DNA from: Klebsiella phage YMC16/01/N133_KPN_BP
Sequence record: MF476925.1
DNA: 58,387 bases
Strand: one strand, 5' to 3'
The translations under genes were made by a program, and so were the position numbers. Under the pieces are notes generated by a model. The model was given only the letters and a program-made list of their open reading frames with translations. It was not told the origin of the DNA and did not search any database. Below are positions 2,446 through 56,585 of this stretch, one piece after another (within the stretch, counting starts at the first letter, position 1; every line of letters starts with the position of its first letter).

Positions 2446-4635
2446 ATGGCTGCAGAAAAGATCCATCTCGACTATGAATCCCGGAGCACGCTGCCGTTCG
2501 GCAAACAGGGCGGCGTGACCACCTACCAGTATTCCCGTCACCCCACGACCGAAATCCTTCTCGCCAGTTATAAGATTGGCTCGGACCCCATCGAGCGCTG
2601 GCGCCGTGGGCAACCTCTTCCTAAGCGGCTCCGTGAGGCGGTGGGGGATGGCCTGAAGCTGTGTGCGCATAACTTCGCGTTCGAATGGGCCATGTGGAAC
2701 AACATATGGGTGCCCCGTCTGGGAGCGCCCGTTTTGCCGTTCTCTCAAGGGGACTGTACCGCGGTGCGCGCTTCCGTGCTGGCGCTGCCTCGCTCATTGT
2801 CCGAAGCCTGTAAAGCCCTCGGCCTGTCTGTCCGTAAGGACGAGGAAGGCGCGAAGGTGATGCTGAAGATGGCGAAGCCGCGTAAGGCCCGTAAGGACGA
2901 GGATCCGGACAGCATCTGGTGGTGGGACACCCCTGAACTGATGGACCGCCTGCACGACTACTGCGACATCGACGTCGAGGTGGAATACGCGCTTGATCAG
3001 GTCCTTCCAGAGCTTACCGAAGACGAGTGGCAGCTGTGGCAAATGGACCACCGCACTAATCAGCGCGGCGTGCTGCTGGACATGCCCTTTATCCATAAGG
3101 CGAAGCGGCTCATGGCCGTGTCAGAGCGCCACTACAATAACGAGCTTTCGAAGATCACCGGCGGTGAAGTCAAGGCGGTCACAGAGGTAGGACCTCTGCG
3201 AAACTGGGTGAACGATAACAGCGAGCTGGCGCTACCGAGTTTTGATAAGACCCAGGTCGAAAATGCGTTGAAAGATCCCGACGTCCCGGATGACGTTCGT
3301 CGCGTTCTGGAGATCCGCCAGGAAGCCGGCAAGTCCTCAGTCGCCAAATACACAAAATTCGAGCTGCTGGCCTATCTTGACAACGTCATGCGGGAAAACT
3401 TCCTGCATCATGGGGCCAACACCGGGCGCAGCGCCGGCAAAGGTGCCCAGCTGCAGAACCTGCCGTCCCGCGGCGGGTTGAAGTGGTACCAGGCCGTCGA
3501 AGTGATCAAGATGGTCATGGAGACTGACGACCCAGAATGGGCGTTCCAGCGCATAGAGATGATTTATGGCGGCGTGCCAGAAGCCCTGTCGTCATGCCTG
3601 CGCCTGTGCATCATCGCGCGCCCGGGCAAAAAGCTGTACGTGGCTGACTTCTCGAACATCGAGGGGCGCGTCGCGGCATGGCTCGGCGGTGAGAAGTGGA
3701 AGCTGGAAGCATTCAAGCTCTACGATACCCCTCTGCTGGACGAGCACGGCCAGAAAATCCCGGATCCCGACACCGAGTTCAAGCGGAAAGGGCCTGACCT
3801 GTACAAGGTCACCGCCGCGCAGATCCTCGGCACGACGCCGGACATCATCAACAAGGTGCAGCGTAACGTCATGGGTAAGGTCCCGGAGCTGGCGCTGGGC
3901 TTTGGTGGCGGCGTCGGCGCCTTCCAGTCAATGGCGAAGATCTACAACGTCAATATGGCGGACTACTGGGACATCGTCCGGACGTCGCTGGACCAGCGCT
4001 TCGTGGACAAGGCGTTCGATAACTGGGAGTCCTTCGGCAAGAAATCTGGCATCCCGCAGGACGAGTGGCTGGCTTCCGAGACCGTCAAGCTGGCGTGGCG
4101 CGCCCGCCACCCTGGCATTGTGCGCTGCTGGCGCGACGCTGAAGAGTGCGCGGTCAAGGCGCTGAAGACCCCCGGCAAATGGTTCAAATTCGCCGGCGGC
4201 AAATGTGCCTTCGGGGCGAAGAAGATCGGCGAAAAGATGTTCCTCATCTCCCGGCTTCCCAACGGCCGCCGCGTGTACCGCTGCGACGCCCACCTGAAAA
4301 CGGTGAAGAAGTTCGGCCGCATGGTCGATGAAATCCGCTTCATGGGCGTGGACAGCGTCACGAAGCAGTGGGTCCGCATGAGCACCTACGGTGGTGACCT
4401 CTTCCAGACCTTCGTGCAGGCGATCGCACGCGACATCATGAAAGACGGGATGGCGAACGTAGAAGCCGCTGACTTCGACCCGATCCTGGAGGTCCACGAC
4501 GAGGTGGGCTCTGAAGGCGACGAAGACCGCGACCTCCATGAATACGAGAACCTGATGGCAACGCTGAAGCCTTGCTACGACGGGTGCCCGGTATCCGCGC
4601 TCGGCTACGTCGCCGACCGGTACCGTAAGGACTGA
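2446..4635 (+). CDS. Family A DNA polymerase with N-terminal 3'-5' exonuclease
   Basis: 729 aa. Exo motif HLDYESRS. Pol motif A DFSNIEGR. Motif B KVPELALGFGGG. Motif C VHDEVG. Confidence 0.85.
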   Translation: MAAEKIHLDYESRSTLPFGKQGGVTTYQYSRHPTTEILLASYKIGSDPIERWRRGQPLPKRLREAVGDGLKLCAHNFAFEWAMWNNIWVPRLGAPVLPFSQGDCTAVRASVLALPRSLSEACKALGLSVRKDEEGAKVMLKMAKPRKARKDEDPDSIWWWDTPELMDRLHDYCDIDVEVEYALDQVLPELTEDEWQLWQMDHRTNQRGVLLDMPFIHKAKRLMAVSERHYNNELSKITGGEVKAVTEVGPLRNWVNDNSELALPSFDKTQVENALKDPDVPDDVRRVLEIRQEAGKSSVAKYTKFELLAYLDNVMRENFLHHGANTGRSAGKGAQLQNLPSRGGLKWYQAVEVIKMVMETDDPEWAFQRIEMIYGGVPEALSSCLRLCIIARPGKKLYVADFSNIEGRVAAWLGGEKWKLEAFKLYDTPLLDEHGQKIPDPDTEFKRKGPDLYKVTAAQILGTTPDIINKVQRNVMGKVPELALGFGGGVGAFQSMAKIYNVNMADYWDIVRTSLDQRFVDKAFDNWESFGKKSGIPQDEWLASETVKLAWRARHPGIVRCWRDAEECAVKALKTPGKWFKFAGGKCAFGAKKIGEKMFLISRLPNGRRVYRCDAHLKTVKKFGRMVDEIRFMGVDSVTKQWVRMSTYGGDLFQTFVQAIARDIMKDGMANVEAADFDPILEVHDEVGSEGDEDRDLHEYENLMATLKPCYDGCPVSALGYVADRYRKD

Positions 4636-8300: not shown

Positions 8301-8323
8301 TTATTCAACCAAACGTTGAATAA
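8301..8323. promoter_or_regulatory. Perfect palindrome TTATTCAAC-CAAAC-GTTGAATAA
   Basis: 9-bp arms with a 5-nt spacer, between the endolysin and the methyltransferase. Confidence 0.5.
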
Positions 8324-8380
8324 ACAACCGCAGCTGGGGTAAGATGAAGCCCTCTACTACACGATACGGCGGAACTTACT

Positions 8381-9451
8381 TTGGCTGCTTATTACAATGA
8401 GTGGGATAAAGACACGGCCCAGTGGCTCCGGGAACTCATCAAACGCGGCCTGATACCCGACGGCTATGTTGACGACAGGAGCATTGTCGATGTCCATCCA
8501 GATGACCTCAAAGAATTTACCCAGTGCCACTTCTTCGCTGGAATTGCAGGATGGCCTCTCGCCCTCAGAATGGCTGGATGGCCTGATAGCCGACCTGTAT
8601 GGACAGGAAGCCCTCCCTGCCAGCCCTTCAGCAACGCCGGCAAGGGGCTCGGGGCAGACGACCCCCGACATCTCGCTCCCGCCTTTGCCCGCCTCGTCAG
8701 AGAGTGTCGCCCTGCAAGGCTTTTTGGCGAACAGGTTAGCGCAGCGGTTAAGAAAGACCTGTGGGTCGATGATCTACGGACTCGACTGGAGGCAGAAGGC
8801 TACGCCTTTGGATTTTCCGTACTGCCAGCTGCTGGCGTCGGTGCCCCGCATAAAAGAGAGCGAATCTACTTCGGAGCCGGGCTTCTGGTATACCCCGACG
8901 ACGAACGTCAACCCACAGCCAGCGACAGCACGCGGCCTGCAGACACTGTTCGGTCAAGCTCGACACCTGGCGGCGTGGCCGACGGCAGCGGCTTCGGACC
9001 CATCTGGCGGTGGCTCAGCGAGCATCGCGCTCCGCAAGCTATCAGGGGACAAGCGACCGTCGGGGGCGAGTCTGCATTCTGGGCTCCGCGACTTCGTGCA
9101 ACTGGCGGCGTGGCCGACGCCAACGACGAGAGACTGGAAAGATGGGTCGGAATGCTTCAACGTCCCGACGAACTCATTGCTGGGACGTGTGGTGTGGCTG
9201 GCGGACCAGCCTATTCGCATAACAGCTTCTGGGACAGTGCTGACTGGCTCGGATGCCGCGATGGGAAGCTCAGGCCAGTTAGACCCGGCTCATTCCCGCT
9301 GGCTCATGGGATTCCCGGACGTGTGGTGCGACTGCGCGCCTACGGAAACGCGATCGTCCCGCCGCTCGCCGCGGAGTTCATCCTCTCGTTCGAAGAAGCC
9401 ATCGAAGACCTCATCGGATCTGGACGAGCTGATTTAGACGAACTCATTTGA
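8381..9451 (+). CDS. DNA (cytosine-5)-methyltransferase, apparently split across two frames by two compensating frameshifts; both frames end DLDELI
   Basis: Frame of 8381 carries motif I (FFAGIAGW), IV (PCQPFS), VI (LFGEQV), VIII (HKRERIYF) and X (AYGNAIVPPLAAEFI). The overlapping frame (8466..9437) carries the TRD-like repeats (AAWPTPTTRDWKDGSEC, AAWPTAAASDPSGGG) and motif IX RWLMGFPDVW. Confidence 0.7.
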   Translation: MAAYYNEWDKDTAQWLRELIKRGLIPDGYVDDRSIVDVHPDDLKEFTQCHFFAGIAGWPLALRMAGWPDSRPVWTGSPPCQPFSNAGKGLGADDPRHLAPAFARLVRECRPARLFGEQVSAAVKKDLWVDDLRTRLEAEGYAFGFSVLPAAGVGAPHKRERIYFGAGLLVYPDDERQPTASDSTRPADTVRSSSTPGGVADGSGFGPIWRWLSEHRAPQAIRGQATVGGESAFWAPRLRATGGVADANDERLERWVGMLQRPDELIAGTCGVAGGPAYSHNSFWDSADWLGCRDGKLRPVRPGSFPLAHGIPGRVVRLRAYGNAIVPPLAAEFILSFEEAIEDLIGSGRADLDELI

Positions 9452-9457
9452 CCAACG

Positions 9458-9476
9458 ATTCAACTATTCGTTGACT
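9458..9476. promoter_or_regulatory. Imperfect palindrome ATTCAAC-TATTC-GTTGAC immediately downstream of the methyltransferase
   Basis: Same half-site family as 8301-8323. Together they flank the MTase gene. Confidence 0.4.
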
Positions 9477-9868
9477 AAACTACAAAGCGTTGGCTATAGT
9501 GAAATTGTTCTCCTGACAGGTCGTGGCGCCGCACCCCGGTTTCCTCCGTTTCCCGGGATGCGGCGCACCTTCCTATGACACACAACAGGCGAGGGAATTA
9601 CCGGAAGCAACGTTGCGACTCGACACGCAGCCCACTGTGGTAAGTAGTTTCCTCTCCGTTGTGTGTGAATGCGCAGGCTGCAGCGCCCAGATTACATGCC
9701 CGTATCCCGAACTGGTTAAGACATGATTCTGGAAAGACGATGGACCACAGAACGCCATTAATGGCGGCGGGTAACCGCAATGAGGAAGACGCTCCACGGT
9801 CTCAAACTCGTCATGAAAAGGTGGAAGCCCTAAGCCGGATATCAGCCCCGGCCACCACAACGCAACGG

Positions 9869-9942
9869 CGCGGTATAGCATCAATTGGTAATGCAGCGGA
9901 CTCATAATCCGGGAGCTGAAGGTTCGAGTCCTTCTGCCGCCG
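9869..9942 (+). tRNA. tRNA-like element (anticodon CAT; Met/Ile2-like) or attP core; no encoded CCA; 1:72 and 27:43 mismatches
   Basis: Manual fold: acceptor 6/7 pairs. D-stem GCAT/ATGC with loop CAATTGGTA. Anticodon loop CTCATAA. T-arm GAAGG-TTCGAGT-CCTTC. The integrase stop and C-terminal codons overlap its 3' half. Confidence 0.4.
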
Positions 9943-10948
9943 CCTTCTCCACCACTGCCATCGGCATAGCCTTGTCGTGAAGCCTCTCCGGGCTCAGGTG
10001 GGTATAGCGCCTCAGCATATTCCAGTCGCGGTGTCCCGACACCAGCGCGACCTCCTGAATCTCGTAGCCCGCTTCGAACAGCCGGCAGATGCCCTCGTGG
10101 CGCAGGTCGTGCCAGCGGAGGTCCACCAGCCCCGCGCGCTCCACCGCCCGGCACCACGCAGCGCCGATGGACCCGGTCTTGTAAGGGAAGATCTCGCCGC
10201 GCTGGCGCACCTGACGTTTGATGATGTCGAAGGACCTGCCCAGCAGCGGCACGGTCTGGTCATTGCCCTTTTTCAGGGTGGGATGCTTACGGTCCCGGAT
10301 CACCACGGTGCGCTTCGCCTCATCGACGTCGCTCCAGCGTATCCGGCAGACCTCTGCCACCCGCATAGCTGTGTCAATGGAGAAGGCGATCAGCTCGTCC
10401 ATCGGGAGGGTGGACTGCATGTTGTCGAGGATCTGCTCTATCTCGTCATCGCTGACCCGGCGGGCGCGTTCGACAGACCTACCGGTCAGCCCATAGTTCC
10501 GCAGGGCGTGGCGGCCGCGCTTCCACTCGTCCCAGTCAGGGCGTACCTCCCAGAAGGTGTCGGCGTGGCGCAGGGCCATTGCGATGAAGACGAACTCCTG
10601 GTCCATCGTGCTGGGCGCCACGCCGCGGCCTTTGGTGTAGTCGAGCATCCACTTCGCGGTCAGCTGAGAGACGAGCACTCCGCTCAGCTTACGACGGAGG
10701 GTGCGCATCGTGGCGTGGTGGGTGCGCTGCAGAGGCTTAATCGGCAGGACCTCATCAATGTAGCGCTGGATCAGTACGCCGACGTCTGGGTCGTTCGCGT
10801 GGAACTTACCTTCCTCGATCGCGCCCTCCATTTCCCGGACCCATTTCTCCGCGAGGACTTTTTTGCTAAAGGTCTTCGACAGAGTTTTGTGTCCTTTGCG
10901 GCGGACCTGAGCCCTCCATCCTTCGCCGTGTTTGTAGATCGATGCCAT
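9902..10948 (-). CDS. int: Tyrosine integrase
   Basis: 348 aa. C-terminal catalytic region with R...HxLRH...Y pattern (RWHDLRHEG...LVSGHRDWNMLRRYTHL). The 3' end overlaps the tRNA-like sequence. Confidence 0.85.
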   Translation of the reverse strand: MASIYKHGEGWRAQVRRKGHKTLSKTFSKKVLAEKWVREMEGAIEEGKFHANDPDVGVLIQRYIDEVLPIKPLQRTHHATMRTLRRKLSGVLVSQLTAKWMLDYTKGRGVAPSTMDQEFVFIAMALRHADTFWEVRPDWDEWKRGRHALRNYGLTGRSVERARRVSDDEIEQILDNMQSTLPMDELIAFSIDTAMRVAEVCRIRWSDVDEAKRTVVIRDRKHPTLKKGNDQTVPLLGRSFDIIKRQVRQRGEIFPYKTGSIGAAWCRAVERAGLVDLRWHDLRHEGICRLFEAGYEIQEVALVSGHRDWNMLRRYTHLSPERLHDKAMPMAVVEKAAAEGLEPSAPGL

Positions 10949-11358: not shown

Positions 11359-12039
11359 GTGGCAACGACCAAAACGACGAAGCGTGGCCCCGGCAGGCCA
11401 CCGAAAAATCCCCGGGCGAAGAAGGCGGAGACCCCAGCTGCCGATGGACTGGACGACCTGATCGGTGCCCCCGAGCAGCCTTCAGACGAAGACCTGTCGC
11501 TGGATATGGGTACCGTCTACGGCGGCGTGTCGGCGCACTGGCTGAGCCACGTCTTCGGGATGGACCGGGTGACGGTGAAGAAGCGCCTCGCGGAGGGCAA
11601 GTGCAAGATCGTCGGCAAGGGCCGGACCGGCGCGCCCATGTACCTGGTCCGCGATGCGGCTGCCTGGCTGGTTAAGCCACAGGTGGACATCACGAGCTAC
11701 ATTAAATCGTTGCGCCCGAATGACCTGCCGCCGATCCTGAACGCCGCCTACTGGGACGCGATGCTGAAGCGCCAGAAGTGGGAAGAGAACGCCGGCGACC
11801 TGTGGCGCACGAACGACGTGATGGACGTCTTCGGCAGTCTCGCGGCCACCCTGAAGTCGACTATCCAGCTTTGGCCGGAGCAGGTCTCCGGGCTGACGGA
11901 TAAGCAGCGGCTGGAGCTGGAGCAACGGTGCGACGGCCTGCTGAACGCTATTCACCACATCCTGGTGGAATCCCCGAACGGGCGCCGCACCCCGAGCAGC
12001 ATGGAAGAGCCTCCGGAGAAGGAGGACGACCTTGTTTAA
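11359..12039 (+). CDS. Terminase small subunit (GTG start) with acidic C-terminal tail ...PPEKEDDLV
   Basis: 226 aa. Basic N-terminus (GRPPKNPRAKK). Sits immediately upstream of, and overlaps, the large terminase. Confidence 0.55.
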   Translation: MATTKTTKRGPGRPPKNPRAKKAETPAADGLDDLIGAPEQPSDEDLSLDMGTVYGGVSAHWLSHVFGMDRVTVKKRLAEGKCKIVGKGRTGAPMYLVRDAAAWLVKPQVDITSYIKSLRPNDLPPILNAAYWDAMLKRQKWEENAGDLWRTNDVMDVFGSLAATLKSTIQLWPEQVSGLTDKQRLELEQRCDGLLNAIHHILVESPNGRRTPSSMEEPPEKEDDLV

Positions 12040-18934: not shown

Positions 18935-19207
18935 ATGCCAAAAGTAAAAGCAGTCCACCAGCTGGTTATTGACGGGCAGGTCATTGCCCCCGGTAAGACT
19001 GTCAACGTCGCCAAAGAGCACCTTGACCGCCTTGTTACTCTGGGCGCCGTGACCCTGGCTACCGGTGAAGCGGCGGAAGACGCTGTAGTCACCGAAGCGG
19101 CCAAAGAGCAGGTTGCCCAGGTGACCGAAGGCTCCGACGCCCCGGCGGAAGAAAAGTCCGCTAAAGGCGGCAAGTCTGCCAAAAAGTCTAACGACGATCT
19201 GGTGTAA
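18935..19207 (+). CDS. Small head-assembly/packaging protein at the lambda FI position, with acidic C-terminal tail ...KKSNDDLV
   Basis: 90 aa. Synteny only. Confidence 0.4.
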   Translation: MPKVKAVHQLVIDGQVIAPGKTVNVAKEHLDRLVTLGAVTLATGEAAEDAVVTEAAKEQVAQVTEGSDAPAEEKSAKGGKSAKKSNDDLV

Positions 19208-47097: not shown

Positions 47098-47291
47098 CAC
47101 AGGTCCTCCACCGGTGCGCTGTAACGCCATTTGCAGATGGCGCGCTCGGAACGCGGGCTGCTCTGTCCCCGCCGTTTGCAGTCAGGGCACTCAACGTAGT
47201 AACGGACGCCGCCGGCGCCCACCGTTTGCTTCACTTCCGCGTCGCCCCCGCAGGGGCAAACGAGTAATGGTTTGAGGTTGGCTGGCATCAT
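47097..47291 (-). CDS. Lar-family restriction-alleviation-like zinc-finger protein
   Basis: 64 aa. LKPLLVCPCGG...YYVECPDCKRRG resembles the Lar/Rac restriction alleviation proteins (CPFCGG...C..C). Confidence 0.4.
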   Translation of the reverse strand: MMPANLKPLLVCPCGGDAEVKQTVGAGGVRYYVECPDCKRRGQSSPRSERAICKWRYSAPVEDL

Positions 47292-48358
47292 CAGATCAGG
47301 TCCTCATCTTCGACGTCGCCAGTAAGTGACTTCGGCTCGTCCAGCTCTTCGCCGTTGACGTGGCTGATCTTCCAGCCCTTCAGCGCGTCTACCATCGACT
47401 GCACTTCGTCGTCGCTCATGTCGCGCAGCGCTTCACCGCCCAGTGACACGACAACGCCGTCAACCAGCGAGTCCAGCGCATCCACGGTCAGCAGCAGAGT
47501 AGCCTTCGCCAGCGCGATACCGGATTCGTCTTCCGTGTCGGCGCCGGCGTCGTCCTGCGCCATGTCGATCAGCGCGTCAGGCCAGGATACCGATTTGAAT
47601 GCCAGGTTTTCGTTGAGGATGAAGCGCGTGCCGCCGTGCAGGTGGTCGTCGTAGTAGCCCAGCTCCAGCGACACGACCTGGTAGTCTTCGCTCAGCAGCT
47701 CGCTCAGGGTCGAAGAGTCGAGATCGACGCTTTTCCCAGAGAGCACCTGGGACCCCTCCAGCTTGCCCTTCGCAGTGAACGCTTCGCCCACTGACAGCTG
47801 CGACGGGACAACCGTGCCGGCTACCCAGTCCGTGAACTGCGTGACGACGGGCTTCTTCGCCGTCAGCGGCTGCACGGGTAACGAGCCGAGCACACGACGG
47901 ACCGCGCCCAGCACCAGCTCCGCCTTCTTCGCGCTGGTGGTTTCAACGTAGACCCAGCTGCCGCTGATCAGCACGTTCACGCGGCTGTAGTCGATCAGCG
48001 CGTTTTCCATCATCCCGATGATGACGTCGTTCTTCAGGCCCTGCTTCTCGTCCTTCGTGGGGACGCGGGCATACTTTTCTTCCCAGTCCTTCAGGCGCTT
48101 ATCCAGCTCGCGCTTGACGATCTTGTTCGGGACAATGCGCAGCGCGGTTTCCAGCGTCAGCGCGTACTTGTTCTTCGCCAGCACGGTCAGCAGCTCATCG
48201 TTGCCGTCGATGGTGGGCACGAAGCCTGAGCGTTGCATCTGAAAGGTGGCCGGATCGCCGGCAGGCAGCACAGCCAGGCGCTCGGGTAGTATGTCGAACG
48301 GTACCTTGTCTGCCTTCAGCAGCCGGTACACCAGAAAACTCTTGAATCCTGCTTTCAT
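47291..48358 (-). CDS. Recombination-associated protein RdgC-like with acidic tail ...DVEDEDLI
   Basis: 355 aa. N-terminal FKSFLVYRL compared with E. coli RdgC FKNLMVYRL, and similar domain length. Confidence 0.6.
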   Translation of the reverse strand: MKAGFKSFLVYRLLKADKVPFDILPERLAVLPAGDPATFQMQRSGFVPTIDGNDELLTVLAKNKYALTLETALRIVPNKIVKRELDKRLKDWEEKYARVPTKDEKQGLKNDVIIGMMENALIDYSRVNVLISGSWVYVETTSAKKAELVLGAVRRVLGSLPVQPLTAKKPVVTQFTDWVAGTVVPSQLSVGEAFTAKGKLEGSQVLSGKSVDLDSSTLSELLSEDYQVVSLELGYYDDHLHGGTRFILNENLAFKSVSWPDALIDMAQDDAGADTEDESGIALAKATLLLTVDALDSLVDGVVVSLGGEALRDMSDDEVQSMVDALKGWKISHVNGEELDEPKSLTGDVEDEDLI

Positions 48359-51676: not shown

Positions 51677-52087
51677 TTAGATGAGTTCATCGATATCGTC
51701 ATCCGCCGGGTCTTCCGGTTTCGCGGTCTCCGCGGTTTCTTCGTAGCCGATGTCGTCCGGGATCAGCTCCATGAAGTCGGCCACATTCAGGTGGTCCCAG
51801 ACGTCGTTGCGCTCGGCGCCATCCACCAGTTCGAAGATTTTCTTCAAGGCCGCAGTATGGACCGCGGGCGCAATCTCCACCACACTGTCGATCTGCGGGT
51901 TATGCTTCGGCCAGAAACCGTATGTACGGTGGCACTCGTGAAAGGCGGCATCGCCGGCCGGTAGGCTGTTCTTCCCGTTCCACGGCTGCGCCAGCGAGAC
52001 CTCGAAGGAGAACGTGCGCGGGGCGAACGCGCCGGGGTTGTCGTCGGACTCACGGTAGGCGGTGGCTGTTACGAGGTATTTAGGCAT
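51677..52087 (-). CDS. Hypothetical early protein with acidic tail ...PADDDIDELI
   Basis: 136 aa. Confidence 0.45.
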   Translation of the reverse strand: MPKYLVTATAYRESDDNPGAFAPRTFSFEVSLAQPWNGKNSLPAGDAAFHECHRTYGFWPKHNPQIDSVVEIAPAVHTAALKKIFELVDGAERNDVWDHLNVADFMELIPDDIGYEETAETAKPEDPADDDIDELI

Positions 52088-52096
52088 TCTTACCCC

Positions 52097-52720
52097 CTAG
52101 ATCAGTTCGTCTTCTTCGGCGTCTGCTGCTGCCTGCGGGTGCAGGTAGTCACCGATGCCGCGGGTGTACGGGATGCGGAGGGACAGGCCGATGGTGGCGG
52201 TGGTGAACAGCACAAGAGCGGTACCGAAGTTCACCCCTGTCTTCATCGTCTGGCCGTCCCGCTCCATGAAATTGTAGCGGCCGTCTGGCTCGTACACGAT
52301 CACGTCGTACTGCAGGTTATCCCGCCACCAGTTCGACACCGGCTCGTAGGGCAGCAGCATCATGCCAGGGCGGCCGGCAGCCTGCTGCTTACGGGCGTGC
52401 TGGATGAACTCCACCTTGCGGTCAAACGGCGGATTGCACCACCAGTCGGCGGGCCAGTCGAGCTGCAGGCTGTCGTCGCCACGATCGAGGCCGAAATAGT
52501 CCACGATGCCGCACTTGCTGGTGGCCTTCTCTGCCGCGACGTCGAACAGGAACGGGCGCCCGTAGAGGTGCTGCGCGTCATAGAACTGCCGCCACGAGGT
52601 GGCCCAGAAATTCTTGTCCCCGTCGGCCGTTGACGACTTCTTGCCGGGGTTAAATGATCCAGCCATAAGGCTCCTTAAAACGTCAGTTGCGAATTCAACA
52701 TTCAGGTGAGATTCTGGCAC
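52097..52720 (-). CDS. Phage Dam-family N6-adenine DNA methyltransferase (NPPF motif) with acidic tail ...DAEEDELI; GTG start
   Basis: 207 aa. FWATSWRQFYD...DWWCNPPFD matches the phage Dam (pfam05869-type) layout. Confidence 0.65.
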   Translation of the reverse strand: MPESHLNVEFATDVLRSLMAGSFNPGKKSSTADGDKNFWATSWRQFYDAQHLYGRPFLFDVAAEKATSKCGIVDYFGLDRGDDSLQLDWPADWWCNPPFDRKVEFIQHARKQQAAGRPGMMLLPYEPVSNWWRDNLQYDVIVYEPDGRYNFMERDGQTMKTGVNFGTALVLFTTATIGLSLRIPYTRGIGDYLHPQAAADAEEDELI

Positions 52721-53717: not shown

Positions 53718-53746
53718 CAAAAAACCCGCCGAAGCGGGTTTTGTTT
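53718..53746. terminator. Bidirectional Rho-independent terminator AAAAAACCCGCCGAAGCGGGTTTTGTTT between the spanins and the primase
   Basis: Hairpin flanked by an A-run and a T-run. Confidence 0.7.
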
Positions 53747-56585
53747 AAATCAGGTCGTCATTTTCCATATCATCGCCTTCACCTTCCTCCAGCGCTCGAT
53801 GTTTTTCCAGCGCCTTCTTCAGCATCTCCTTGCCCCTGAGACTGAGCTTTCCATCCTCCTGAAGGAGAGATACGTCCCTGGTATAGACCGACAGCTTCGT
53901 CAGGTTGCCATCAATTCTGACCACCGTATTCTGCGCGGCTCGGAATCCCTGCGGCACCAGAAACGAGGCTCCGCTCTTCGTATTGAGGCTTCTGTCGACC
54001 CCGTGGATCTGAAAAGCCTCCTTCAGATGAGACATGATGAGGATGTCGCTGGTGATGCACGGGTACCTGTCGTCATCGAGCAGGTCCTGGAGAATCGTCT
54101 CTGCTTCTGACCGGGCGTTGTTAGCCACTATCGTCCGGTAGCGCGTGCGCGGGGCACGTTCCTTCGGGCGATAATACTCGCTGAACTGGTATTTCTCGAA
54201 ATAGGCTTTGAACTGCCACGGGTGGTCCTTAATGTGCTCGTACAGCGTCTGGACATAGTGCACCCCTTCCTTCTCCCGGTTGGCCTCGCGCCACTCGGTC
54301 ACCGCGTCGTCCGTATGGAAGCGGGTGAACACCACCAGATAGCGGTCGTCGCTCTCGTCCAGCGGCAGGGCGTTCTCGTGGTTGGTCATCATGTAGAAGT
54401 TCGCGAGGTTTTCCTGCTGCTCGGCATCCTTGTTCATGGCGCGCACAGAGGCCGTGGAGTTCGAAATCAGTGGCTTCATCTTCTCCAGAACTGCGTAGGC
54501 TTCCAGGCCGCCGATTTTCACCTCTTCCAGACCAACGAAGCACCGGTTCGAAATCCAGCCGTTGTGCTTTTCCTTCAGCACGTCGTTGTTGATCTCGTTG
54601 CAGTTCTGTTTACCGAGCATACGGGTGATCAGCGTCTTCAGCGTGGACTTACCTTCGTTACGGGACCCCTTTACCAGCAGCGCATACGGCAGCTTGACGC
54701 CCGGGAATTTCACACAATGAGCGACGAAATCAGACACCAGAGCGCGCTCGCGGTCATCCGGGAACAGGTCCTTCATGAGTCGTTTATACAGCTTGACGCC
54801 CTCGTTACCCCGGTACGCGGTGCGCTCGATGATGGCAGGCCGGTAGAGGTTAAGCAGGCACTCTCCACCGACAATAGGCAACCTGTCATCCGGGTGCTGC
54901 GGGTCGTAGGTAGTGCGAATGGCGCGCGGCACAGGGTTATTGGACCCCAGAGCTGCCGACAGAGCCGGGATGCGCGGTGTCCCGTTCTCCGTCACCCCAT
55001 AGGTGTCGATCGCTTCCTTGAAGTAGCGGTTGTTGAACGCCTCTTTCCCCATAGGACGCATCTCATTGTCTGACAGGCAGTAGAATGCGTTCTCGCTGAC
55101 CACGAAAACCACGTCGTCCAGCCATTCAGGGCGGTTATCATCCCCGTTTCCGATGAGCCGGTTAACCTTCCGCTCAGTGACTTCCTTTCGAACGAAAGCC
55201 TTCGTCATCGGCGAGCCAAGCTCTTTGGCCTTTTCGATGATTTTCGGGATGAAGTTCTCCCGGCGCCACGCCTGCAGGAAGTCGGCTGGTGCGCCGGCGA
55301 TGGCATGGCATACCTTCTGCAGGTCGTCCACGTTCTCCGCGATGCGGATCAGGCGGAACACCTCGGTGCAGTATTCCTCCAGGGTCTTCGGCTTTTTGCG
55401 CTTCGGAGTGGTGTCGCCGATAAGGTCGTCTTCATCGTCGTCCTCCTCATCATCGCCAAAATCAGGCAGCAGGGCAGCGGCCATCTCTGTCTGCTCTTCC
55501 TCAATCTCGGCTTCGATCTCCGCCAGCGCCTCCAGCACGGCAGGCTGCTGGCGCATCAGGGCTTCCATCGCCTTGTACGACTCCAGCTCTACCGGCGAGC
55601 TGATATCATCCTTGTCGATGCCGTCATCCAGGTCGCCGAACAGCACCAGACGCCCGGTGTCAAAGGTGGTGTGCTGGCCGTGGGCCACGTCGGAGTGCGA
55701 GTGGTCAGAGTGGATAAAGGCGTCGTCGTAGATGCGGACTGACGCGGCGCCGGAGGCACCAAACGGGCGGTAACGTCCTTCCCCCACATACTCGTAATGG
55801 TCAGACAGGAACTGCTCGATGAAGTCTTCCGGGGTGTACGCGCGGTGGACGGCCGTGATAATAGGGGCTGTCGTTTTCTTGTCTTCCGGGTGCTGCCGGC
55901 TGCCGGTGATGCCTTTGGCACTGTCGACGCCATCCGGGCGAACAGGCCAGCTGTCAGGGTCGGTAATGTCGTACTTTTTGAACGCCTTTTTAGGGTCCAG
56001 GAACTTGCCATCGAACGTCTGGTGGAAGAACTCTCCATCAGAGCAGACGCTGGGCATAAACATCAGCTGCGCGGTCACGAATGACTCAGCGGCGACGGCC
56101 ATCATATTCTCGTCAACCAGCTCCGCGACGTAGCGGACCACCAGCTCGTACTCATCTTTGGTGACATCAGCGGCCAGCGGCACGATAACGCGGAAACGCG
56201 GCTTCTCGATGGTGTGCTTGCGGGTGGTGTGGACGTGATAGGCCAGGCCTTTGAGCCCCTCTATACCGCCGCGGTAGATAATCTCGTCCCAGACAGTGTC
56301 CGCATGGTCATCGATGTCTAGCGTAACGACCGAACGGCATTCCAGATTCACTTTGCGGCGCTTGCCGTCTTTGAACTGGCCGCCTACGAAATAGCCCTTA
56401 TTCTTGAGGTTGCGTTGCTCTTCAACCGACATATCGAGGTAGTCGGCGAGGGTAACGTCATCGCGAACTGGTTCTTCGAAACGAGAGACGAGTTCCTGCC
56501 ACGTCAGCTCTTCGTTTTTTACTACCGACAGGTTTTTCTTACCTGGCTTGCCGAAGGAGACCTTCAGCGTGCGGGTTTGACTCAT
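53745..56585 (-). CDS. Primase-helicase (P4 alpha / D5-like) with acidic tail ...EGDDMENDDLI
   Basis: 946 aa. N-terminal primase-polymerase-like region (VVTLDIDD). C-terminal P-loop (VKGSRNEGKSTL) as in D5/P4-type helicases. Confidence 0.65.
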   Translation of the reverse strand: MSQTRTLKVSFGKPGKKNLSVVKNEELTWQELVSRFEEPVRDDVTLADYLDMSVEEQRNLKNKGYFVGGQFKDGKRRKVNLECRSVVTLDIDDHADTVWDEIIYRGGIEGLKGLAYHVHTTRKHTIEKPRFRVIVPLAADVTKDEYELVVRYVAELVDENMMAVAAESFVTAQLMFMPSVCSDGEFFHQTFDGKFLDPKKAFKKYDITDPDSWPVRPDGVDSAKGITGSRQHPEDKKTTAPIITAVHRAYTPEDFIEQFLSDHYEYVGEGRYRPFGASGAASVRIYDDAFIHSDHSHSDVAHGQHTTFDTGRLVLFGDLDDGIDKDDISSPVELESYKAMEALMRQQPAVLEALAEIEAEIEEEQTEMAAALLPDFGDDEEDDDEDDLIGDTTPKRKKPKTLEEYCTEVFRLIRIAENVDDLQKVCHAIAGAPADFLQAWRRENFIPKIIEKAKELGSPMTKAFVRKEVTERKVNRLIGNGDDNRPEWLDDVVFVVSENAFYCLSDNEMRPMGKEAFNNRYFKEAIDTYGVTENGTPRIPALSAALGSNNPVPRAIRTTYDPQHPDDRLPIVGGECLLNLYRPAIIERTAYRGNEGVKLYKRLMKDLFPDDRERALVSDFVAHCVKFPGVKLPYALLVKGSRNEGKSTLKTLITRMLGKQNCNEINNDVLKEKHNGWISNRCFVGLEEVKIGGLEAYAVLEKMKPLISNSTASVRAMNKDAEQQENLANFYMMTNHENALPLDESDDRYLVVFTRFHTDDAVTEWREANREKEGVHYVQTLYEHIKDHPWQFKAYFEKYQFSEYYRPKERAPRTRYRTIVANNARSEAETILQDLLDDDRYPCITSDILIMSHLKEAFQIHGVDRSLNTKSGASFLVPQGFRAAQNTVVRIDGNLTKLSVYTRDVSLLQEDGKLSLRGKEMLKKALEKHRALEEGEGDDMENDDLI

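Follow-up and report, generated by a model that had tools for sequence, protein, structure and literature searches.

The closest described system is M.EcoHK31I of E. coli HK31 (Lee, Kam and Shaw 1995), a C5 cytosine DNA methyltransferase (C5-MTase) of two polypeptides. As published, the beta gene lies wholly inside the alpha gene in another frame, alpha carries motifs I-VIII and X, beta carries motif IX, and both chains are required (PMC2836561, PMC3404938). Internal ATGs of the beta frame are usable as starts, and the N-terminal part of beta is important for its association with alpha (PMC2836561, PMC3404938). Here we analyze a comparable gene pair in Klebsiella phage YMC16/01/N133_KPN_BP, whose complete genome of 58,387 bp is referred to as the window. 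Two plus-strand open reading frames (ORFs), frame A at 8381-9451 and frame B, which is A+1, overlap there almost completely (Table 1), and they probably encode one C5-MTase as two nested polypeptides, alpha and beta, translated independently in overlapping frames of one mRNA.

As in M.EcoHK31I, alpha of the phage has motifs I, IV, VI, VIII and X, with motif X selected in frame A only, and beta is nested in alpha in frame +1 with a conserved start of its own. The phage locus differs in that beta reaches 88% of the length of alpha (315 versus 356 aa), the recognition-type modules are multiple, exchangeable and selected in the beta frame, the enzyme is an orphan outside a restriction-modification pair, each chain has an acidic D[DE]LI tail, and a weakly matching motif II-like YYNEWDK stands ahead of motif I. 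M.AquI is a natural two-subunit C5-MTase in which alpha and beta are split between motifs VIII and IX (PMC3404938, PMC5944983). The phage enzyme would likewise have two subunits and a break in the variable region between these motifs, but M.AquI beta has both IX and X and its genes are essentially consecutive, whereas here alpha has motif X and one gene lies inside the other in a different frame. In the circularly permuted C5-MTases of the M.BssHII type, motifs IX-X come ahead of motif I (PMC5944983); a non-canonical motif order is common to both, although here only the weakly supported YYNEWDK precedes motif I. No description of this arrangement was found in the literature for the phage family.

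Both frames are open and selected across the family

The comparison set consisted of 80 further IMG/VR loci with 42-52% amino-acid identity, and 82 loci were analyzable in all. The same ORF pair is present in distant phages of about 72% nucleotide identity, for example Klebsiella phage VLCpiM12a and the E. coli Kagunavirus phages K1ind1 and phiEc4, and the GenBank record of K1ind1 has an annotation for each frame ('C-specific methylase', 'Mte8-like protein'). K1ind1 and phiEc4 differ by a 120-nt indel that leaves both frames open, and indels among relatives are multiples of 3 that preserve both. In each of the 82 loci the A+1 frame was open, typically across 85-90% of the length of A, compared with only 9-41% for the third frame. 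Synonymous shuffling of A predicted 4.0 stops in B and shuffling of B predicted 8.2 stops in A, whereas none was observed in either frame of the 78 distinct loci (mean P per locus 0.037 and 1e-4, respectively); the third frame carries about 15.

At first sight the locus has the look of a split gene, and an earlier note on this DNA had named a pseudogene or a sequencing artefact as the alternatives to genuine translation of both frames. Nothing further was found in favor of them. The same two open frames recur in every locus, across independent phages and metagenomes with 42-72% identity, which rules out a pseudogene as well as two indels introduced by sequencing or assembly. The frame-keeping indels and a frame B-specific selection pattern in mid-gene count against these explanations too. 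A second frame that is merely a by-product of base composition is ruled out by the synonymous shuffles. The chance that any of these explanations holds appears negligible.

Selection was mapped as the mean pairwise nucleotide identity by codon phase, in codon alignments of which some were based on frame A and others on frame B. Segments selected in A only, in B only and in both frames alternate along the gene (Table 1). The two stretches at 8697-8850 and 9222-9340 are constrained in all three phases, indicating that both frames are read there. The changes of selected frame are thus flanked by 120-150 nt read in both frames, a pattern not expected from a simple reading from A to B and back to A.

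Beta also has a start of its own, preceded by a Shine-Dalgarno (SD) sequence. In the close homologues P0001-P0004, gene callers place the start at MSIQMTSKN. At the SD site the alpha codons of the family read D-E-R-S-I, with Arg invariably NGG and Ser invariably AGY, which yields [AC]GGAG 8-9 nt before the beta ATG across loci; the SD of beta is therefore kept through synonymous codon choice in alpha. Loci that lack [AC]GGAG have another SD-preceded ATG close by. An SD-like sequence with an in-frame ATG was found for frame B at 61 of the 78 loci, compared with 8 of 78 in the control frame. The beta coding span of the window lies wholly within alpha, and across loci the median beta stop is 26 nt ahead of the alpha stop. 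In three IMG/VR loci (L013, L019 and L072), frame B opens about 190-265 nt past the alpha start, just 5' of the conserved helix-hairpin described below, which fits the lack of amino-acid selection on the first ~66 residues of beta.

These results show two open frames with selection on defined segments of each, a start that belongs to beta and, as described below, selection on both tails. These open frames, the selection map and the beta start support the translation of both frames that the earlier note had proposed, and the motifs lie where it had placed them, I, IV, VI, VIII and X in the frame of 8381 and the repeats and RWLMGFPDVW in the overlapping frame. The note had further held that two compensating shifts, near 8860-8890 and 9320-9345, are needed for one protein. 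The selected frame does change at about these two points. Stitching A to B by a +1 shift after motif VIII and B to A by a -1 shift before motif X would moreover restore the canonical order of motifs I-VIII, target-recognition domain (TRD), IX and X, with a stitched motif IX-X spacing of 13 codons (PD 9315, GN 9344) compared with 17 in M.HhaI. However, the conserved SD and ATG of beta, the stretches of ~150 nt and ~120 nt constrained in both frames, the selection on both C-terminal tails and the domain fusions that carry on in frame B beyond motif IX rule out a double frameshift as the main mechanism. In addition, a conserved folded element of beta (residues 70-117) precedes the first proposed shift, frame B is read to its own stop, freedom from stops over the whole length of both frames would be superfluous for a frameshift product, and two serial shifts would be very inefficient. 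When the sequence was read at the junctions (8870-8890 and 9321-9343), no slippery heptamer or stop-codon context was seen. We regard a single-chain MTase made by two programmed frameshifts as highly improbable, and recoding or slippage as unnecessary.

Table 1. Positions in the window of the alpha and beta genes, their motifs, tails and selected segments, with tails of related loci, other acidic-tail proteins and frame B fusions.
Feature	Positions	Strand	Remarks
Alpha, frame A ORF	8381..9451	+	356 aa, TTG start; catalytic domain, linker, C-terminal block with motif X and acidic tail
Motif II-like YYNEWDK (putative)	8390..8410	+	frame A, before motif I; weak local alignment to M.HhaI 36-46
SD sequence AGGAG of beta	8477..8481	+	8 nt 5' of ATG 8490; inside alpha codons D-D-R-S
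Beta, frame B ORF (A+1)	8490..9437	+	315 aa from ATG 8490; upstream ATG 8466; frame open from 8454
Motif I FFAGIAGW	8531-8554	+	frame A
Motif IV PPCQPFS	8612-8632	+	frame A
Beta residues 70-117, helix and beta-hairpin SVALQGFLANRL...GSMIYGLDWRQKATPLDFPYCQLLAS	8697..8840	+	predicted (AF2); overlaps alpha motifs VI-VIII; dual constraint
Motif VI FGEQV	8723-8737	+	frame A
Motif VIII HKRERIYF	8849-8872	+	frame A
Three recognition-type modules	8886..9212	+	frame B: WYTPTTNVNPQ... from 8886; WPTAAASD... from 8976; WPTPTTRDWKDG... from 9111
Frame B C-terminal block IRITASG..LTGSDA..GQLDPAHSRWLMGFPDVW (motif IX-like)	9213..9326	+	dual-coded with frame A FWDSADWLGCRDGKLRPVRPGSFPLAHGIPGRVV; all phases 0.60-0.91
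Motif X YGNAIVPP, then helix	9341-9364	+	frame A; A-only codon pattern, AF2 helix
Beta tail DLDELI + TAG	9417..9437	+	frame B: gat ctg gac gag ctg att TAG
Alpha tail DLDELI + TGA	9431..9451	+	frame A: gat tta gac gaa ctc att TGA; 14-nt offset from beta tail
Selected in A only	8390-8690	+	A position 3 identity ~0.4
Selected in both frames	8697-8850	+	all three phases 0.55-0.75
Selected in A only (motif VIII)	8843-8872	+	codon phase
Selected in B only	8892-9220	+	B position 3 least conserved, 0.32-0.46
Selected in both frames	9222-9340	+	up to 0.8-0.9 in all phases
Selected in A only (motif X)	from 9342	+	codon phase
Tails, window and L086			alpha DLDELI; beta DLDELI
Tails, L084			alpha TDLDELI; beta SDLDELI
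Tails, L085			alpha DLDELI; beta GWDELI
Tails, L087			alpha DLADDLI; beta SWDDLI
Tails, L088			alpha DIDDLI; beta DPDDLI
Acidic-tail proteins, including DSLI exonuclease	1-375, 405-1721, 1777-2382, 11359-12039, 18935-19207
Acidic-tail proteins, continued	47291-48358, 51677-52087, 52097-52720, 53745-56585	-	
Frame B fusion examples (Dam, HNH/endonuclease VII-like, DUF2800/PD-(D/E)XK)	P0060, P0072, P0319, L009 1571-2785		

Catalytic motifs in alpha and recognition-type modules in beta

In GenBank, the frame A product is found with 100% identity under the name 'DNA methyltransferase [Klebsiella phage YMC16/01/N133_KPN_BP]', and it matches phrog_363 (E 5e-79). It scored 65.9 bits against Pfam PF00145 (cut-off 22), with the match confined to aa 75-164, and hhalign aligned its profile to motifs I and IV-VIII of M.HhaI (probability 98%). 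The Pfam, PDB and hhalign matches of frame A all end at motif VIII, and the alignment to M.HhaI passes from motif I to motif IV without residues 34-69 of that enzyme (motifs II-III). Judged by the Pfam threshold and the catalytic motifs IV (PCQ), VI and VIII, frame A is assigned to the C5 cytosine DNA methyltransferases (PF00145), as are at least 8000 frame A-type proteins in the databases, all of which carry this domain. The ten motifs I to X do not stand in order on one polypeptide, the motif IX-like block being in frame B. At the N-terminus of alpha, YYNEWDK (8390-8410) is followed by G.VDDRSI.DV and then by motif I (8531-8554). The weak alignment of YYNEWDK to M.HhaI suggests that it may be motif II-like and that the AdoMet (S-adenosylmethionine)-binding half of alpha may be locally permuted.

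The frame B product had no match in Pfam or the PDB. More than 2200 of its homologues in protein databases are without any Pfam domain, and 6834 clusters at 50% identity match its module-plus-motif IX part. It does match phrog_1008 and phrog_31772, so that PHROGs splits the two frames between phrog_363 (A) and phrog_1008/31772 (B), all named 'DNA methyltransferase'. Many gene callers choose frame B and leave its product as a hypothetical protein. The literature on 'Mte8-like', the name given to frame B in K1ind1, was uninformative, and a cluster look-up returned only the same name.

Both chains were modelled singly with AF2. Residues 1-148 of alpha are folded (pLDDT 60-89) and the model matches M.HhaI; residues 149-322 fall below 50, and the motif X helix at residues 327-346 reaches 65-85. 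From motif VIII to motif X, selection acts only in frame B and the alpha model is disordered, leaving alpha without a recognizable TRD. Residues 1-66 of beta are predicted to be disordered, residues 70-117 form a confident helix and hairpin (pLDDT 75-90) that coincides with the first dual-coded stretch, the modules score low and residues 240-280 are moderate.

Bacillus phages SPR, phi3T and rho11s have C5-MTases with tandem recognition modules between motifs VIII and IX on a single polypeptide in one frame; the modules vary among related phages and are used to evade several host restriction systems. Tandem exchangeable modules between motifs VIII and IX, the mark of multispecific phage C5-MTases, are also present here, as three WPTP-type modules in frame B that likewise vary among relatives. 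The tryptophan of AAWPTAAASD is at 8976 and AAWPTPTTRDWKDG begins at 9111. Frame A is an unconstrained, stop-free linker across all three. In the near-identical relatives P0002, P0003 and P0004, whole WPTP-initiated modules of frame B have been gained, lost or replaced, and a 27-nt junction repeat is present at the DNA level (8964-8990 and 9099-9125). These features suggest a multispecific enzyme whose set of specificities is altered by recombination at the repeated (L)AAWPT junctions, with a recognition role that we infer for the modules. The Bacillus enzymes differ in having everything on one chain in one frame, while multispecificity here is suggested by the module pattern; no sequence similarity of the phage locus to the SPR, phi3T and rho11s enzymes was found.

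After the modules, frame B carries QLDPAHSRWLMGFPDVW at 9276-9326. Within this block, RKLHPRECARVMGYPDSYK gave the sole hhalign match of the beta profile to M.HhaI (beta 262-280 to HhaI 272-290, 19 columns, E 0.23, suggestive though not significant). The sequence GGGATTCCCGGAC at 9308-9320 encodes G-I-P-G when translated in frame A and G-F-P-D when translated in frame B, a run of doubled bases giving G-x-P in both frames at the motif IX position. In P0060 frame B runs past the motif IX block into a complete Dam domain (E 4e-53), and in other phages its C-terminus is fused to an HNH/endonuclease VII-like domain or to a DUF2800/PD-(D/E)XK nuclease. Because these fusions follow motif IX in frame B, ribosomes must stay in that frame there.

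Of the 150 representatives that scored best for the recognition-plus-motif IX part, the ten longest were examined, and no PF00145 domain was found in the same chain in any of them. The only protein with PF00145 among the frame B matches is P0120 (NCBI and Logan, 359 aa). It was rejected as an ancestral single-chain form. Its frame A part covers motifs I-VI and passes into frame B ahead of motif VIII, which is therefore missing, and the protein resembles the product of a P0040-type locus that has been frameshifted or misassembled.

Acidic C-terminal tails and flanking features

DLDELI followed by a stop, which the earlier note had read in both frames at 9417-9451 and had taken to be selected in each, is confirmed from the sequence. 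The two 18-mers have 14 of 18 bases in common, and all four differences are synonymous. A dual D[DE]LI ending is present in four lineages, the window with its close relative L086 and three more distant ones (L084, L087 and L088), instead of being absent from all relatives. Across the tail loci, the codons and the preceding residues vary, the 14-nt offset is constant and the beta stop overlaps the alpha tail. That the peptide is kept with different codons in both frames indicates selection on the peptide itself and translation of both frames to their own stops. Scans of IMG/VR and GTDB genomes with a degenerate pattern of the dual tail returned no matches.

The tail is also found elsewhere in the window. 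A [DE][DE]L[IV] C-terminus is carried by 8 of the 70 non-overlapping ORFs, with beta as a ninth, compared with 0.066 expected (P = 5.5e-15). Besides the MTase, the carriers are a gp2.5-like single-stranded DNA-binding protein (SSB; ending in ..DEDEDDLV), an RdgC-like protein, Dam, the primase-helicase (..MENDDLI), TerS and two small proteins. The exonuclease ends in the near variant ..GDLDSLI, and the family A DNA polymerase (2446-4635) is without such a tail. Relatives L084-L088 retain the tails on SSB, exonuclease and TerS.

Like gp2.5 of phage T7, T7 gp4 has an acidic C-terminal tail. The gp2.5 tail binds other replication proteins (PMC10359462). The gp2.5-like SSB and the primase-helicase of the window resemble it in having an acidic run with a terminal hydrophobic residue. 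The phage tail differs in ending in L-I or L-V where that of T7 ends in F, and in being present also on both MTase subunits, Dam, the RdgC-like protein, TerS and small proteins, with DSLI on the exonuclease. By analogy, the acidic tail suggests a shared docking motif, through which both subunits may bind the same partner, most likely either the SSB or the DNA polymerase, which itself is without the tail. The presence of the tail on TerS implies that such a hub need not be purely replisomal.

Short imperfect direct repeats whose spacing is not a multiple of 3 were also noticed in the gene (8447-8468/8580-8601; 9183-9200/9317-9334; 9167-9178/9423-9434/9437-9448). They encode similar peptides once per frame (GLIPDGY/GLIADLY, GRVVRL/GRVVWL and DELI three times), and may be due to chance in GC-rich DNA or be traces of the origin of the overlap or the tail.

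The MTase gene lies between two promoter-like elements that resemble each other, at 8305-8345 (attcaaccaaacgTTGAATaaac...TAAGAT) and 9455-9500 (attcaactattcgTTGACTaaac...TATAGT), of which only the second reached the scan threshold; the promoter and terminator scan was otherwise uninformative. A megablast of the gene against the phage collection returned no match. Downstream, a tRNA-Met (CAT) gene or tRNA-like sequence (9869-9944, plus strand) extends into the 3' end of the minus-strand integrase ORF (9902-10948) and is probably an attP region or a phage-borne tRNA.

Proposed assembly of alpha and beta and its meaning for the family

If alpha and beta work together, alpha would provide the domain for AdoMet binding and catalysis (motifs I and IV-VIII), a linker of ~115 residues whose sequence is unselected and need only be stop-free, and a conserved C-terminal block with motif X at its end. 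Beta, which has its own SD and ATG ~110 nt inside alpha, would provide a dispensable disordered N-terminus, the conserved helix and hairpin as the proposed interface with alpha, the string of exchangeable WPTP modules as the proposed target-recognition domains, and motif IX. The two would then assemble into the usual enzyme of a large and a small domain, as in experiments on M.EcoHK31I, and by analogy with that enzyme we infer an alpha/beta heterodimer. The D[DE]LI tails would dock both subunits on a common partner, as the tail of T7 gp2.5 does.

We also considered that alpha alone is a complete MTase and that the overprinted beta has an independent role, for example as an anti-restriction or regulatory DNA-binding protein. 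Alpha does have motifs I, IV, VI, VIII and X together with a conserved, selected segment loosely resembling motif IX, GenBank and PGAP annotate frame A only, and beta is without significant similarity to solved structures or Pfam families. Nevertheless, no TRD is recognizable in alpha, where the region from VIII to X is unselected and predicted to be disordered, and the beta modules with the RWLMGFP block occupy exactly the place of the TRD and motif IX of canonical enzymes. The fusion of beta to Dam also ties it to DNA methylation, and M.EcoHK31I needs both chains (PMC2836561). An alpha that acts alone is accordingly unlikely, though less so than the double frameshift.

Several points weigh against two cooperating chains. 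The existence and the association of the proteins are deduced from sequence and from two single-chain models of low overall quality (mean pLDDT 53 and 56). A profile search of the PDB with frame B returned nothing, and the motif IX assignment of beta depends on a 19-column alignment that lacks statistical significance. The loosely motif IX-like segment of alpha, GKLRPVRPGSFPLAHGIP, is itself selected, and alpha alone might be active. The phage locus has the architecture of M.EcoHK31I when compared by published description, not by sequence, and the literature puts the TRD of M.EcoHK31I on alpha, where none is found here. For the docking role of the tail, its presence on TerS and on a 90-aa protein of the head region is a misfit with a purely replisomal hub. 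With these points taken into account, two nested polypeptides forming one C5-MTase still appear to be the likely explanation.

A wider picture can be put forward only tentatively, as somewhat less likely than not. The locus would represent a huge phage and prophage family of obligate alpha/beta C5-MTases, with at least 8000 proteins of the alpha type and, at 50% identity, ~6800 clusters of the beta type, whose genes overlap out of frame for ~300 codons. Beta-borne cassettes, each stop-free in the alpha frame, would be shuffled between phages. In one clade, a 14-nt offset duplication would have given both chains their D[DE]LI. This tail would bring them to the same hub at the replication fork as Dam, SSB, primase-helicase and nucleases, and new phage DNA would be methylated during its synthesis. 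The kind of architecture is known but obscure; what is new is its scale across the family, the map of selection, the cassettes carried by beta and the duplication of a docking-type tail.

Annotations mostly call one frame, and thousands of phage MTases are therefore probably incompletely described; cloning frame A alone may yield an inactive or non-specific enzyme. To our knowledge, which here is general and not drawn from a systematic comparison, the overlap ranks with the longest that are conserved between phage genes on the same strand, and its unusually clean selection map makes it a good model of two proteins sharing one sequence. If the beta modules set specificity, the anti-restriction repertoire of these phages could be changed by cassette exchange, which would be useful for host-range prediction and for engineering of m5C MTases. 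Finally, the shared acidic tail suggests a testable mechanism by which DNA modification may be coupled to replication.

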